From positions 10,828-74,827 of the forward strand of contig DASPOF010000089.1 in assembly GCA_035626155.1 (NCBI GenBank): a DNA stretch of 64,000 nt. Reading direction: 5' to 3'. The first letter of the stretch is position 1. The number at the start of each line of letters is the position of its first letter. This document shows, one piece after another, positions 11,065-64,000 of this stretch. Origin of the DNA: Candidatus Binataceae bacterium. GTDB taxonomy: Bacteria > Desulfobacterota > Binatia > Binatales > Binataceae. A model generated the notes under the pieces. That model worked only from the letters and a program-made list of their open reading frames with translations, ran no database searches and was not told the origin of the DNA. The position numbers were made by a program, and so were the translations under genes.

Positions 11065-11376
11065 CGGGGTTTGACGATAACGCCCCCCGCTGGCATTTCA
11101 AGACCCGGCGCGAATCGGCGGGCTCAAGCGAGGGTTTAATGGTGTTTTATTCCGGTCAATTTGAATTAGCCATCCTCATTTGACTTAGGACTTCTCATTG
11201 GGAAGTATATGAAAGCGAAGAAACGTCGAACGGTTATCAACAGCCCGATGTATAGATTATGAACAGGCCTGTAAACACTACATCTAGCGGTAAAGGACTT
11301 GACATCGACACAATGCCGGGAGCATATTTTCCCGCGCGCACGATGATTTTATGAGGCGGAAACGTCATTGAGCCGA

Positions 11377-11415
11377 CGGACTTAACGCCCCCTCCCGGAG
11401 GGGGCGCTAAGTCCG
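11377..11415 (+). promoter_or_regulatory. near-perfect 19-nt-arm palindrome (strong hairpin) in the nrdJ 5' leader
   Basis: CGGACTTAACGCCCCCTCC-c-GGAGGGGGCGCTAAGTCCG with one mismatch, about 50 nt upstream of the nrdJ start. No U-tract follows. Confidence 0.6.
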
Positions 11416-11463
11416 TGGCCGCGGCAGGTGTAACAGAAGCGAAATCTGGTGGAGGGGCGGCGG

Positions 11464-44940: not shown

Positions 44941-45117
44941 TTAAGCCAGGGAGAGCAGGGAGCTGACAATGTAGGCCAGCGTCAGCAGGCCGAAGACCGC
45001 TCCCGGCAGTTCGCTGAGCCAGCTGTATTGCGCGATGCGAACGTAGTCGGTCGCTTCCGCAGCCTCTTCCGCCCTCGCGAACCCAGCAAGCCTCGCCTCG
45101 TTAGTCGTCGCGTTCAT
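44941..45117 (-). CDS. small tail-anchored membrane protein, paralogue A (58 aa)
   Basis: MNATTNEARLAGFARAEEAAEATDYVRIAQYSWLSELPGAVFGLLTLAYIVSSLLSLA. AGGGAGG ribosome-binding site upstream. By-eye alignment to paralogue B is about 60% identical overall and about 85% identical across the last ~27 residues, which span the SELPG motif and the C-terminal TM. Track ORF 44941..45156 starts 13 codons earlier. Confidence 0.6.
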   Translation of the reverse strand: MNATTNEARLAGFARAEEAAEATDYVRIAQYSWLSELPGAVFGLLTLAYIVSSLLSLA

Positions 45118-45435
45118 GTTGAATGCCTCCCGTACGTGATAATCTAAGGGAGGCATTAAGCAACGGCTATGCCATCGAAAAACTCTCGATTTTCAAAGGG
45201 GAAGGGATTTCGCAGCCTGTGCATAATTTTCGTGCAATAGTGAGAAAAGCCGCAAAATCTCTAGACTTTTCCGATAATCGCAATTTGCGAGTGGCGAAAT
45301 CTTATAACCGTGATGTCTGAGACATATTCCTAAAATGCAAATGCACGCAGGCCAGAGACTGCGGCGATCACCGCAGTCAATTGCAGGCTGAAATCAGTTC
45401 TTTGATGCTCCGTACCTATCTGCGAGAGAATCCCG

Positions 45436-59530: not shown

Positions 59531-59737
59531 TCAGGGTTCCAGGTACTCGCAGATGGTGGTCGGTGGTGGGACCGGCAAACCGTCGCCTCGCAGACCGTCG
59601 ATATGAAAACGGATGGCTTCGCGGATGTTGCGTTCGACTTCCTCGACGGTGTCGCCGGTCGCGACGCACCCAGCCAAGTCCGGAACGTATGCGGAGAAAT
59701 TCCGCGCCGTCTTCTCTATGACGATCGCGTAACGCAT
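59531..59737 (-). CDS. hicB: type II antitoxin HicB (UPF0150)
   Basis: MRYAIVIEKTARNFSAYVPDLAGCVATGDTVEEVERNIREAIRFHIDGL. Confidence 0.85.
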   Translation of the reverse strand: MRYAIVIEKTARNFSAYVPDLAGCVATGDTVEEVERNIREAIRFHIDGLRGDGLPVPPPTTICEYLEP

Positions 59738-59931
59738 CAGCGGTCTCCCTTAAGCTGCGCTTGCTTCAGGACGCTATTCAGAGTTCCCGGGGCCAAATCA
59801 TCGGAGGGTTTGCCCGCAATCGTTACTCTACCCCGCTTGCTTGCGTGCTTGAACTGGCGGTGGCTACCGCGCGTCGCAGCCAGGAACCAACCGTCGTCTT
59901 CGAGCATCCTGATGACTTCCCGCACTTTCAC
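59737..59931 (-). CDS. hicA: type II toxin HicA (mRNA interferase)
   Basis: MKVREVIRMLEDDGWFLAATRGSHRQFKH...; ATGA overlap with hicB. Confidence 0.85.
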   Translation of the reverse strand: MKVREVIRMLEDDGWFLAATRGSHRQFKHASKRGRVTIAGKPSDDLAPGTLNSVLKQAQLKGDR

Positions 59932-59951
59932 GCGGCGACCGGTGCCAGCGG

Positions 59952-60926
<975 letters not shown>

Positions 60927-60982
60927 CACGATATCTCCGCCCGCGCGGGCCTGATCAAATATAGATAATGAGGCGGCACTCC

Positions 60983-61048
60983 AACAGGCTGTGATTTATC
61001 ACAGCCTGTTCCCCCTCTCTTATCTCCCCCGGGAAAGACCGGGGGAGA
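60983..61048 (-). promoter_or_regulatory. two consecutive hairpins in the hemB leader / cobA-hemD to hemB spacer
   Basis: AACAGGCTGTGA-ttta-TCACAGCCTGTT (12-bp perfect stem, 60983-61010) and TCTCCCCCGG-gaaaga-CCGGGGGAGA (10-bp perfect stem, 61023-61048). Confidence 0.55.
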
Positions 61049-61073
61049 AGATAGAGGAAAGCAGCCATCTTTC

Positions 61074-61141
61074 ATGCAGGATGTTGAGACCGTGGCGCAT
61101 TCGAAGTGCGATGACCGCGCCTTCTTCAACATCCTGCTATG
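61074..61141 (-). repeat. about 68-nt palindromic intercistronic element, copy 2 (overlaps the cobA/hemD stop codon)
   Basis: Plus strand TGCAGGATGTTGAGACCGTGGCGC...CGCGCCTTCTTCAACATCCTGCTA. 13-bp perfect terminal inverted repeats GCAGGATGTTGAG/CTCAACATCCTGC. The terminal CTA is the TAG stop of cobA/hemD on the minus strand. Confidence 0.7.
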
Positions 61142-62684
61142 AAGCTCCCGCGCGCCCGCTGAAGTAATCGCAAATTGCCGCGGCAAGCGCGGGGACTGTG
61201 TATCGCATCGGACGCACGACCACCTCGAACCCTTTTTTCTCCGCAGTCTGCGCGGTAATCGGGCCGATCGCCGCGGCCTTGATCGGCCGCGTGGGCTCGC
61301 CGACCATCGCGCAGAAATTCGTCACCGTGCTCGAACTGGTGAACGTCACAAGGTCGATTTCGCCCGCGGCGGCCATCTCGCGAACCCGGTCGGCCGCCGC
61401 AACCTTGGGTCTCACAGTTCGATAGGCGTGCACGACCGCGACCTCGCGCGCGCCGGCGCCGCGGAGAATTTCGGGCAGCGCCTCGCGCGCGACCTGCGCA
61501 CGCGGGATGAGAATGCGGGTGCCGCGGATCCGGCGCCGTCCGATCGCCGGCACGATCGCCTCCGCGCGGTACTCCTCCGGCATCGCGGCGACCCTCAGCG
61601 CGTAAGCGCGGACACGCTCGGCGGTTGCCGGGCCGATCGCGCCGATCGACGCGCGGCTCATTTCGCGGATGTCGTGGCCGAGCCGCTTCACCCTCGCGAT
61701 GAACGCATCGACGCCGGTTGCGCTCGTGAAGATCACCCAGTCGAATTTCCCAAGCCGCGCGATCGCCCGATCGAGCGCCGCGTAGCTCGTCGGAGGCGCG
61801 AACTCGATCGTCGGGAACTCGATCACGTCAGCGCCGAGCGCGCGCAGGTCGGCGGCGAAGCCAGAGGCCGCATCGCGGGCGCGGGTCACCACGATTCGCT
61901 TGCCGAACAGCGGCATCGCCTCGAACCACTTGACCTGATCGCGCAATCCCGCGCATTCACCGACGACTATCACTGCCGGAGCGCCGAGCTTTTCGCGCTC
62001 GCACCGCGCGGCCAGCGTCGCCAGCGTTGCCCGGACGGTCCTCTGCGATGCGGTCGTGGCCCACTGAATCGCGGCGGCCGGGGTGCGCGAGGCAAGTCCG
62101 GCCTTCACAAGCTCGCCGAGCACGTCGCGCATCCGCTCGCTCGCCATCAGGAGCACCAAGGTTCCGCCGCGTTTTGCTGCCGCGGCCAATTCTTTCCACG
62201 GCACCGGCGCGGACGATTTCTTGCTCGAACCTCGATGGCCGGTCAGGAATGCGACGAAGGAACCGTACCTCCGATGCGTCAGCGGAATTCCGGCATACGT
62301 CGGCGCCGCGATCGCGGAAGTAACGCCGGGGACCACCTCGAATGCGACGCCAGCATGGGCCAGCGCCTCGGCTTCCTCGCCGCCGCGGCCGAAGATGAAG
62401 GGGTCGCCGCCCTTGAGGCGCACGACCGTTTCGCCCCTTCGGGCACGCGCGATTAGAACCTGGTTGAGCGCGTCCTGGTCGATCCTGCGCCCGCTGCCGC
62501 GAATATCTCCGGCGGGTAGGAGCGCGGCTTTCGCGGGCGCCAGCCGGAGCAGATCGGGATTAGCGAGATAATCGTAGATTACGGTATCGGCGCGGCGCAG
62601 GCACTCGGCGCCGCGCATCGTGATCAGATCCGATGCGCCCGGGCCTGCTCCGACCAGGTAAACTTTGCCCCTGCGCTCACGCAT
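61137..62684 (-). CDS. cobA: bifunctional uroporphyrinogen-III C-methyltransferase / uroporphyrinogen-III synthase (CobA-HemD fusion)
   Basis: N-terminal SUMT domain (VYLVGAGPGASDLITMRGAECLRRADTVIYD...GGDPFIFGRGGEE), C-terminal HemD domain. Start at MRERRGKVYLVG, 5 nt after the hemC stop. Confidence 0.85.
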   Translation of the reverse strand: MRERRGKVYLVGAGPGASDLITMRGAECLRRADTVIYDYLANPDLLRLAPAKAALLPAGDIRGSGRRIDQDALNQVLIARARRGETVVRLKGGDPFIFGRGGEEAEALAHAGVAFEVVPGVTSAIAAPTYAGIPLTHRRYGSFVAFLTGHRGSSKKSSAPVPWKELAAAAKRGGTLVLLMASERMRDVLGELVKAGLASRTPAAAIQWATTASQRTVRATLATLAARCEREKLGAPAVIVVGECAGLRDQVKWFEAMPLFGKRIVVTRARDAASGFAADLRALGADVIEFPTIEFAPPTSYAALDRAIARLGKFDWVIFTSATGVDAFIARVKRLGHDIREMSRASIGAIGPATAERVRAYALRVAAMPEEYRAEAIVPAIGRRRIRGTRILIPRAQVAREALPEILRGAGAREVAVVHAYRTVRPKVAAADRVREMAAAGEIDLVTFTSSSTVTNFCAMVGEPTRPIKAAAIGPITAQTAEKKGFEVVVRPMRYTVPALAAAICDYFSGRAGAS

Positions 62685-63630
62685 CGCCCACCAGCGCGCC
62701 AGCGCCGCGGGCAAGCATCCGCTCGCCGAGCCGCACCCCCGCCGCCTCGGCGACCGAGGGCGCCAGATCGCTGTCGAGCGGCTCCTGGAGCGCATCGGCC
62801 AGCTCCCGCGCGCCATCGCGGCTGAATACGATCGCGCGGATCGAAAGCGAGCCGCCCGCCGCGACCGCCCTCACGCCGACCGGTGTCACGCAGGAGGCTC
62901 CGATCGTCGCGAGATACGCGCGCTCGGCCGCGATTTCATACATCGCGCGCGCGTCGTTGATCGCGGTGAGCGCCCGTTCGAGATCGGACGGACGGTCCAG
63001 CCGCGAGTTCTGGAGCATCTCGATCGCAAGTGCGCCCTGGCCGCCCGACGGGATGAAGTCGCGCTCATCGAGCGGCACGAGTTTCAATCCGGCGAGCCGA
63101 TTGAGACGCTGAAGCCCCGCCATCGCGAGAATGATCGCATCGAGACCGCCCTCCTCGATACGCTTGAGGCGCGTGTCCACGTTGCCTCGAAGGGGAGTGA
63201 TCGAAAGATGCGGGTTCACGCGCAGCGCCTCGAACTGCCGGCGCGATGACGAGGTGCCCAGGCGCGTCCCGGCCGGCAGCGACTCGAACCCATCGCCCGT
63301 GCGCGTGACCAGCACATCGCGGGGGTCCACACGCTCTGGCACCGCCGCGAGGCGGAACTCCGGCGGGAGCGCCGCCGGCAGGTCCTTCATCGAGTGGACC
63401 GCGATATCGATCGTGCGCGCCTTGAGCGCCTGTTCCAGCTCGCGGATGAACAATCCCTTGCCGCCGACCTGCGCGAGCGACGCCGATGTCATCTTGTCGC
63501 CGCTGGTTCGAATCTCGACGATTTCAGCGCTGAGACCCGATGCGACCGCGGCCAGGCGTTCGCGGACGATCGCAGCCTGGGTAAGCGCGAGCCGGCTGGG
63601 CCGCGAGCCAATCCTTACCGTAAGAGCCAT
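62677..63630 (-). CDS. hemC: hydroxymethylbilane synthase (porphobilinogen deaminase)
   Basis: MALTVRIGSRPSRLALTQA...AVHSMKDLP...; 317 aa. Confidence 0.95.
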   Translation of the reverse strand: MALTVRIGSRPSRLALTQAAIVRERLAAVASGLSAEIVEIRTSGDKMTSASLAQVGGKGLFIRELEQALKARTIDIAVHSMKDLPAALPPEFRLAAVPERVDPRDVLVTRTGDGFESLPAGTRLGTSSSRRQFEALRVNPHLSITPLRGNVDTRLKRIEEGGLDAIILAMAGLQRLNRLAGLKLVPLDERDFIPSGGQGALAIEMLQNSRLDRPSDLERALTAINDARAMYEIAAERAYLATIGASCVTPVGVRAVAAGGSLSIRAIVFSRDGARELADALQEPLDSDLAPSVAEAAGVRLGERMLARGAGALVGDA

Positions 63631-63651
63631 GATGGATTTCCCGCCGCAGGC

Positions 63652-63723
63652 CGCTAGCAGGCTGGTGTTGAGACCGCAGGGCGGCCGAACTCCGATGCTC
63701 TCGCTTTTCTCAACATCCTGCTA
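63652..63723 (-). repeat. about 70-nt palindromic intercistronic element, copy 1 (overlaps the hemA stop codon)
   Basis: Plus strand TAGCAGGCTGGTGTTGAGACCGCAGGGCGGCC...TTCTCAACATCCTGCTAG. Both ends and the TTGAGACCG-GG-GC core are shared with copy 2. The terminal CTA (63721-63723) is the hemA TAG stop on the minus strand. Confidence 0.7.
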
Positions 63724-64000
63724 GTGGGCCTCGGTTTCGCCATCTTCGTCGGATTCGTCGCCGTCGATCAAGCCGCCGGCGGCATGAAGCTCGCCGCCCA
63801 GCAGACGGCGCGCCACCTCGGCGGCATGCGCGCCCTCGGGCGTGTCGGCGCCGCTCTGGCGAAGGCCGCGCAGAATGCGGTGGAGGAGCTTGTTGGTCAG
63901 CCCGCGCGTGACCCTTTCCACGCGCTCGCGCTCGGCGGGCGCGAGTCCCGCGAGCCATCCGCGATGGCGTCCGAGTTCGAGATGGCGCAGGCGCTCGATG
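63721..64000 (-). CDS. hemA: glutamyl-tRNA reductase, C-terminal dimerisation region (partial; start beyond window end)
   Basis: ...ERVTRGLTNKLLHRILRGLRQ... , the characteristic HemA C-terminal LTNKLLH motif. Stop at 63721-63723. Confidence 0.8.
   Translation of the reverse strand, partial: IERLRHLELGRHRGWLAGLAPAERERVERVTRGLTNKLLHRILRGLRQSGADTPEGAHAAEVARRLLGGELHAAGGLIDGDESDEDGETEAH

Follow-up and report, generated by a model that had tools for sequence, protein, structure and literature searches.

Two palindromic elements lie in the intercistronic spacers of a hem operon carried on the minus strand of the 64,000-nt stretch of Candidatus Binataceae DNA analysed here (contig DASPOF010000089.1; hereafter the window). 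The order of genes and elements is hemA, the element at 63657-63721, hemC, cobA/hemD, the element at 60984-61137, and hemB. [quoted passage not shown] They are very probably lineage-specific, non-coding, non-autonomous mobile repeats of the MITE kind, not an RNA specific to the hem operon.

Two related elements in the hem operon

A hidden Markov model (HMM) of the family was built from 22 full-length copies. It has 156 positions; as the last of them belongs to the flanking TA, of which it is the T, the element proper measures 155 nt. The model matched the window twice, with E-values that rule out chance as the source of the similarity between the two copies; no third copy was found in the 64 kb, either with the HMM or by sequence search. 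The features of the two copies are as follows.

60984..61137, minus strand: copy 1, full-length family unit of 154 nt (consensus 155 nt); nhmmer model positions 1-155, E=3e-46
61076..61137, minus strand: hairpin A of copy 1, 62 nt, outer stem GCAGGATGTTGA / TCAACATCCTGC; from the fold and the consensus structure
61014..61057, minus strand: hairpin B of copy 1, CCTCTATCTTCTCCCCCGG / CCGGGGGAGATAAGAGAGG; inverted repeat kept in all full-length copies
60984..61010, minus strand: hairpin C of copy 1, ACAGGCTGTGATAAATCACAGCCTGT; 3′-terminal palindrome bearing the right terminal inverted repeat
61138..61139, minus strand: left TA of the copy 1 duplication; the cobA/hemD stop TAG consists of it and the first G of the element (61137)
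60982..60983, minus strand: right TA of the copy 1 duplication, decayed to TG (CA on the plus strand), from the alignment of filled and empty sites
63657..63721, minus strand: copy 2, 65-nt derivative; nhmmer model positions 1-58, E=1.6e-12
63722..63723, minus strand: left TA of the copy 2 duplication; the hemA stop TAG consists of it and the G at 63721
63655..63656, minus strand: right TA of the copy 2 duplication; the G after it (63654) was the last base of the TAG stop before insertion

Read on the minus strand, copy 1 is GCAGGATGTTGAAG...CACAGCCTGT. It was aligned with 25 other full-length copies. Its identity to the family consensus is 87.8%, its final base having changed from C to T; in hairpin C the terminal pair is altered on both sides, from G-C to A-U. 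Copy 2 shares with it TAGCAGGATGTTGA on the 5′ side and GGTCTCAACA on the 3′ side. The end of copy 2 runs from GGTCTCAACA directly into CCAGCCTGC and then TAG, the left arm and core of hairpin A being fused at this junction to the full unit's final 9-11 nt. The junction was called by comparison with the 3′ ends of full-length copies (...ATCACCAGCCTGC), and copy 2 looks like an internal-deletion derivative that would have lost about 90 nt. Folded as the minus strand, hairpin A of copy 1 reached -35 kcal/mol (z -5.6 against shuffled sequences), copy 2 reached -32.8 kcal/mol (z -2.8) and the entire copy 1 spacer -107.9 kcal/mol (z -6.7).

An earlier note on this DNA had described two related palindromes at these places, and in that respect it was right: the copies are homologous according to the HMM and both fold better than shuffled sequences. 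Its identification of the flanking genes agrees with Pfam and the gene calls, and the terminal CTA that it read on the plus strand is indeed the complement of a TAG stop, that of cobA/hemD at 61137-61139 and that of hemA at 63721-63723. Several details have to be amended. The size of ~70 nt given there is less than half that of copy 1, of which only hairpin A had been noticed and which carries two more hairpins; most copies of the family are likewise longer than 70 nt. The end consensus quoted as shared is exact at only one end of each copy. The stem of copy 2, described as a perfect closing stem of 13 bp, consists of 8 bp, an internal loop and 7 bp, the interruption arising because the 3′ arm reads ...TCAACA followed by CCAGCCTGC. 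Finally, the copy labels were swapped relative to the gene order, since it is the element at 63657-63721 that follows hemA and the one at 60984-61137 that follows cobA/hemD.

All four hem genes are supported by Pfam matches and by gene calls on the 82-kb source contig, which is assigned to a Candidatus Binataceae metagenome-assembled genome:

63721..64000, minus strand: 3′ end of hemA (glutamyl-tRNA reductase), Pfam GlutR_dimer; 446-aa gene call in L001, extending beyond the window
62677..63630, minus strand: hemC (hydroxymethylbilane synthase), Pfam; database protein P0001 is 100% identical
61137..62714, minus strand: cobA/hemD fusion (uroporphyrinogen-III methyltransferase and synthase), Pfam TP_methylase and HEM4; 525-aa gene call
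59952..60926, minus strand: hemB (porphobilinogen synthase), Pfam ALAD and gene call

Empty sites in relatives and a dispersed family

Orthologous operons from four distinct relatives were gathered by way of HemC and HemB homologues. Their spacers compare with those of the window as follows.

Window: hemA-hemC spacer 90 nt; cobA/hemD-hemB spacer 210 nt
L005 (HemC 85% identical): hemA-hemC spacer 23 nt; cobA/hemD-hemB junction not on the contig
L006/L007 (HemC 74% identical): hemA-hemC spacer 21 nt; cobA/hemD-hemB spacer 48 nt
L045-L047 (HemB 93% identical): hemA-hemC junction not on the contig; cobA/hemD-hemB spacer 48 nt
L049/L050 (HemB 89% identical): hemA-hemC spacer 58 nt; cobA/hemD-hemB spacer 58 nt

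The element is absent from all four relatives, at both junctions or at the sole junction that the contig covers, and the family HMM found no match in their hem loci (31.5 kb). At two junctions the alignment gives a clean empty site, with a single TAG in the relatives where the window has TA, the element and TA again:

hemA-hemC, empty (L005): ...CCG TAG CGGCCTCGGGCGGGAAATCCACC ATG
hemA-hemC, filled (window): ...CAC TA[GCAGG...65 nt...CCTGC]TA GCGGCCTGCGGCGGGAAATCCATC ATG
cobA/hemD-hemB, empty (L045-L047): ...GGGGGCTTCT TAG AGCGCCGCC...
cobA/hemD-hemB, filled (window): ...GGGAGCTTCA TA[GCAGG...154 nt...CCTGT]TG GAGTGCCGCC...

These alignments indicate that each insertion entered the TA of an existing TAG stop and duplicated that TA; since then, copy 1 has acquired the TG on its right and the T at its last position. 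Neither insert includes the ribosome-binding region of hemC or hemB, and both regions are similar to those of the relatives. Immediately downstream of hemB the window carries a hicA/hicB toxin-antitoxin pair (59531-59907, minus strand; 13724-14100 in L001), in whose place L006/L007 have a GNAT acetyltransferase gene; this looks like a local gene replacement beside the hem operon.

Further copies were sought with an exact two-arm pattern (GCAGGATGTTGA, 30-55 nt, GGTCTCAACA). In a scan of one genome per species over 185,579 species, one other contig matched from a Binataceae metagenome-assembled genome (MAG), beside an RHS-repeat gene; a match in an Acidobacteriaceae sequence (L009) was put down to chance, as it lies inside an open reading frame (ORF) and forms no palindrome. 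In JGI metagenomes the pattern found 35 loci on many contigs, all from one sample series with contig numbers Ga0187769-71 and Ga01878xx, three samples of which supplied most of the distinct sites. Searched with the HMM and deduplicated, the family comprised at least 36 distinct sites in ~0.3 Mb, 26 of them full-length and about ten short. The GC content of the loci (0.59-0.66) is similar to that of the window (0.65). Ten upstream ORFs were tested and all ten were ordinary, unrelated genes, encoding an FHA/VWA protein, GlgB, PBP2, GroEL, HflX, a cytochrome, an ABC-2 permease, FtsX, an MFS transporter and an aldo-keto reductase.

The consensus fold of the full unit consists of three hairpins, A, B and C. 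Between its two flanking TA dinucleotides, the unit is made up of hairpin A (GCAGGATGTTGAGA...TCTCAACATCCTGC, 62 nt), an 18-nt linker, hairpin B (CCTCTATCTTCTCCCCCGG TCTTTT CCGGGGGAGATAAGAGAGG, 44 nt), the tetranucleotide GGGA and hairpin C (GCAGGCTGTGATTTATCACCAGCCTGC, 27 nt). The boundaries are sharp, with similarity running exactly from GCAGG to CCTGC. Canonically the unit starts 5′ with GCAGGATG and finishes 3′ with CAGCCTGC; these ends form terminal inverted repeats, GCAGGATG matching the reverse complement of CAGCCTGC (GCAGGCTG) at seven of eight positions. TA flanks the left end in 27 of 36 copies and the right end in 20 of 34; nearly all other flanks are one base off, in most cases through a transition to TG or CA. 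That the duplication is TA and not TAG is clear from right flanks that read TAT and TAA. The short form is hairpin A alone (62 nt), with perfect arms of 14-16 nt; it has TA on both sides in L023 and L030, and CA on the left in L015. A scan for additional terminal-repeat motifs returned chance matches and one fragment only.

Three members depart from this scheme. In L036, the copy at 884-1037 is only 67% identical to the consensus and lies on a contig of lower GC content (0.59), which indicates that the family, or an older subfamily, exists in another organism. Two copies in L037 (440-593 and 607-671), a short and a full-length one, share one orientation and are separated by 13 nt, a tandem or adjacent insertion suggestive of local reinsertion or a hot spot. 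The short form at 6104-6165 of L035 starts with GCAGGCTG, the terminus type of hairpin C, in place of GCAGGATG, a sign that some ends in the family are recombinant or chimeric. By inspection, one frame of the consensus (xxT AGC AGG ATG ...) is open over all 155 nt and closes at the flanking TAG, while the remaining two stop immediately or after three codons; insertion near the 3′ end of a gene would thus either stop translation promptly or append ~52 residues as a tail.

The earlier note had offered two explanations. One was a cis-regulatory or processing RNA that sets the differing expression of hemA, hemC/D and hemB, a reading in keeping with the presence of two copies in the spacers of a single operon and with stable mRNA-strand hairpins that begin at a stop codon in both. 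By the criteria that the note itself set, it is refuted as a dedicated regulator. The same junctions lack the element in the four relatives, and at least 34 further copies adjoin unrelated genes. Copy 1 is moreover the most decayed of the full-length copies save L036, the others being 88-97% identical to the consensus. Double changes were seen at six of 49 pairs, each in one sequence, and most pairs are invariant; the covariation term is just -0.24 kcal/mol, a value that is uninformative because the copies are this similar and the family is too young. Rfam, run over the whole window at gathering thresholds and over 60800-64000 at E up to 10, gave only weak matches scoring far below the gathering score of their family, and none touched copy 2 or hairpin A of copy 1. 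In 59800-64000 no sigma-70-type promoter was found, nor, on either strand, an intrinsic terminator of the kind made of a GC-rich hairpin and a T run, so the elements are not obvious promoters or terminators. The second explanation, a selfish palindrome of the REP or MITE type with TA-like flanks, has held: the flanks are a TA duplication and the copies are dispersed, so that the search for copies proposed in that note identifies a generic repeat. Its remark that such an element is not a standard named feature was overstated, as REPs that supply TAG stops (PMC3733652) and TA-flanked MITEs (PMC2229807) had already been described.

Two further candidates were set aside. The motif TGTGAT..ATCACA in hairpin C resembles a CRP/FNR/Fur-type site, but it occurs in all full-length copies genome-wide and is not specific to hem. 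The pair GTTGAGA / TCTCAAC brought to mind an integron attC, whose core sites are RYYYAAC ... GTTRRRY; on inspection, the two motifs stand in the opposite order and the final base disagrees. The window also holds two palindromes of unrelated sequence in intergenic-looking positions (11376-11416 and 45117-45162), one with 20-nt arms of 95% complementarity and a 1-nt loop, the other with 18-nt arms of 83% complementarity.

Stop codons and orientation

Since the element starts with G, a TA to its left is read as TAG. A credible gene ends at this left-end TAG in 17 of the 36 copies; 13 of these genes are supported by Pfam (the ten upstream genes listed above, a GNAT gene, hemA and cobA/hemD) and four by a coding-type GC content at third codon positions (GC3). 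In another three or four copies, the right-end TAG closes a gene that converges from the opposite side. The share of copies at stop codons is thus ~57%, against an expected 8-15%, a 4- to 8-fold enrichment (binomial p ~1e-9). The expectation comes from a census of the window with a crude GC3-based gene set, in which ~23 TAs in stop codons were set against 279 intergenic TAs; counted by TAG, the same set gives ~19 TAG stops to 112 intergenic TAG/CTA. The copies are also oriented unevenly: among full-length ones, 13 have hairpin A towards the upstream gene and two or three have it the opposite way (p ~0.02).

The same gene set of the window has 18 TAG, 23 TGA and 4 TAA stops. A stronger dominance of TGA is expected at 65% GC, so that TAG appears unusually common; a high share of TAG would widen the pool of harmless targets for the element. 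The right flanks of the family are mainly TAG, in line with the 18:4 ratio of TAG to TAA.

A simple course of events would account for the arrangement in the hem operon. Insertion would duplicate the TA dinucleotide and, with a G at either end of the element, would rebuild a TAG for the upstream gene whenever the TA that is hit belongs to a TAG or TAA stop; with the stop rebuilt, such insertions would be tolerated and over-represented. One unit would have entered the TAG of cobA/hemD and remained full length, its right TA and last base mutating later, and another would have entered the TAG of hemA and been reduced to 65 nt, apparently through an internal deletion. Part of the enrichment is likely to reflect survivorship, because the sole harmless TA of a short, GC-rich 3′ spacer is often that of the stop codon. 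Any effect on hem expression would probably be a by-product, in that the hairpins could alter the stability or processing of mRNA segments or slow termination. Hairpins of the Correia/NEMIS repeats are known to affect mRNA (PMC2229807), and a role in mRNA stabilisation has been hypothesised for REPs (PMC3733652).

Usefulness to the host might also explain why copies are kept at stop codons. The family would then be domesticated, serving to protect mRNA 3′ ends, to separate cistrons or to tune termination at TAG, and the hem copies would be working examples. The enrichment and the orientation bias speak for such a role; the left TA, which is the one in the stop codon, is better kept than the right, and mRNA effects of REP, ERIC and Correia elements are documented (reviewed in PMC2229807). 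Yet the enrichment can come from TA targeting followed by the purging of harmful insertions, selection on the stop codon itself accounts for the better preservation of the left TA, and the same sites are empty in close relatives. On balance, domestication seems decidedly unlikely. A stronger version supposes that machinery, or strong selection, directs the element to the TA of TAG or TAA in a preferred orientation, its first G being fixed so as to rebuild the stop and the hairpin that begins within the stop codon having a conserved effect on termination, mRNA stability or the coupling of cistrons. This too is rather improbable; if true, the element would be a widespread post-transcriptional modifier in Binataceae and not a neutral parasite.

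Ends, kinship and mobilisation

The assignment to MITEs follows from what the copies look like. The unit (155 nt) and the short form (62 nt) are below ~300 bp and have no gene of their own, they end in terminal inverted repeats, many dispersed copies occur in one lineage, and the target duplication is TA, although an element ending in TA that inserts after a TA would be formally indistinguishable. Bacterial MITEs are typically shorter than 200 bp, with terminal inverted repeats, TA ends and a target duplication (PMC2229807), and duplication of TA is a hallmark of IS630/Tc1-mariner elements (PMC2170065). The mover is therefore likely to be a transposase acting in trans from an insertion sequence (IS) of the IS630/Tc1-mariner type, as the TA duplication and terminal inverted repeats would indicate. 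IS630 transposition reportedly prefers a TA within CTAG.

Several points weigh against this assignment. No cognate autonomous IS with a DDE transposase and matching ends was found in the 469 kb examined. Ordinary genes, and no transposase with matching ends, lie between paired copies; the gene-poor gaps of the window held no transposase either, their ORFs being NMO, LigT, a TonB-like protein or of no known type. A tblastn search of the 469 kb with IS200/RAYT/Tc1-like queries gave nothing below E=0.08, a weak negative. Because the mobilising gene was not found, the classification is based on the signature of the element's ends, and there the TA duplication is formally inseparable from what an HUH-type element would leave if its own end were TA and its insertion point 3′ of a TA. 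A symmetric, TA-targeting DDE transposase would not be expected to give the orientation bias, which points to selection or to a strand-specific mechanism. As for abundance, eight bystander copies in ~233 kb of non-redundant flanking sequence suggest about one copy per 30 kb, a density extrapolated from metagenome contigs that possibly mix related populations.

The HUH alternative is that the element resembles a REP or REPIN and is moved by a single-strand HUH (Y1) transposase, either a RAYT (the transposase associated with REPs) or an IS200/IS605 TnpA, with hairpins A and C as the structures recognised. The left TA would then be the target motif and the right TA the 3′ end of the element, and insertion would be strand-specific, from which the bias of 13 copies to two or three follows naturally. 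Both termini are indeed hairpins that start at the extreme ends of the element, TAG stops supplied by the termini have been reported for GTAG REPs, and RAYT genes with long terminal inverted repeats, as well as moderately abundant families of such repeats, are on record (PMC3733652). Against this, the base preceding the TA is G in only ~5 of 27 copies, so that a conserved GTAG tag is missing, and the TA, being paired to its opposite partner, does not form an unpaired tag. The three palindromes measure 62, 44 and 27 nt, and the terminal ones, A and C, are alike in their first 8 nt only, unlike the near-identical REPs of a REPIN. Those outermost 8 nt make up a registered terminal inverted repeat with TA on both sides, the IS630/Tc1-mariner signature. 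No RAYT or other Y1 transposase gene was matched in the 469 kb by the IS200/RAYT queries, again a weak negative. Mobilisation of this kind appears unlikely, both in the enzyme it proposes and in the roles it gives to the two TAs, and the MITE assignment is preferred.

Among described repeats, the closest in kind are the RUP elements of Streptococcus pneumoniae and the Correia/NEMIS elements of Neisseria, likewise MITEs of <200 bp that are non-coding, with terminal inverted repeats and TA at both ends (PMC2229807, PMC2170065). They too have many intergenic copies, would form long hairpins if transcribed, and include internal-deletion and short derivatives. The Binataceae element has no sequence similarity to them and is GC-rich, not AT-rich; it is a mosaic of three palindromes and not one long stem, it strongly prefers stop-codon TAs and is biased in orientation, and no partner IS was found for it in the 469 kb. 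With GTAG REPs and REPINs it shares the nature of a palindromic extragenic repeat that often abuts genes and whose terminus gives a TAG stop (PMC3733652), together with a mosaic organisation similar to that of bacterial interspersed mosaic elements (BIMEs). It differs from them in its unit of 155 nt, as against 20-40 nt, and dissimilar terminal palindromes, in its base-paired, target-duplicated TA without a conserved G before TAG, and in the lack of a RAYT match noted above. ERIC/IRU and YPAL of enterobacteria (127-168 bp) are similar in size, are co-transcribed with flanking genes and form mRNA stem-loops (PMC2229807). The Binataceae element comes from a different phylum and bears no sequence relation to these; YPAL, moreover, has no TA ends and makes variable duplications, whereas here the duplication is fixed as TA. 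ERIC/IRU and YPAL are also reported to influence mRNA stability in a manner that depends on their orientation.

These results remove a tempting false lead, for what looked like a stop-codon-fused structured RNA in a heme operon is a genome-wide repeat. The Binataceae were found to be represented only by metagenome assemblies, and the defined 155-nt consensus with its HMM can help to annotate MAGs and to account for contig breaks. The remaining interest lies in the strong occupancy of stop codons and the orientation bias, whose cause may be targeting, selection or both. The data show that a TA-duplicating element that begins with G can sit harmlessly inside TAG stops, and the ~57% occupancy, taken with the orientation bias, provides material for asking whether tolerance or selection governs what settles at the ends of genes.

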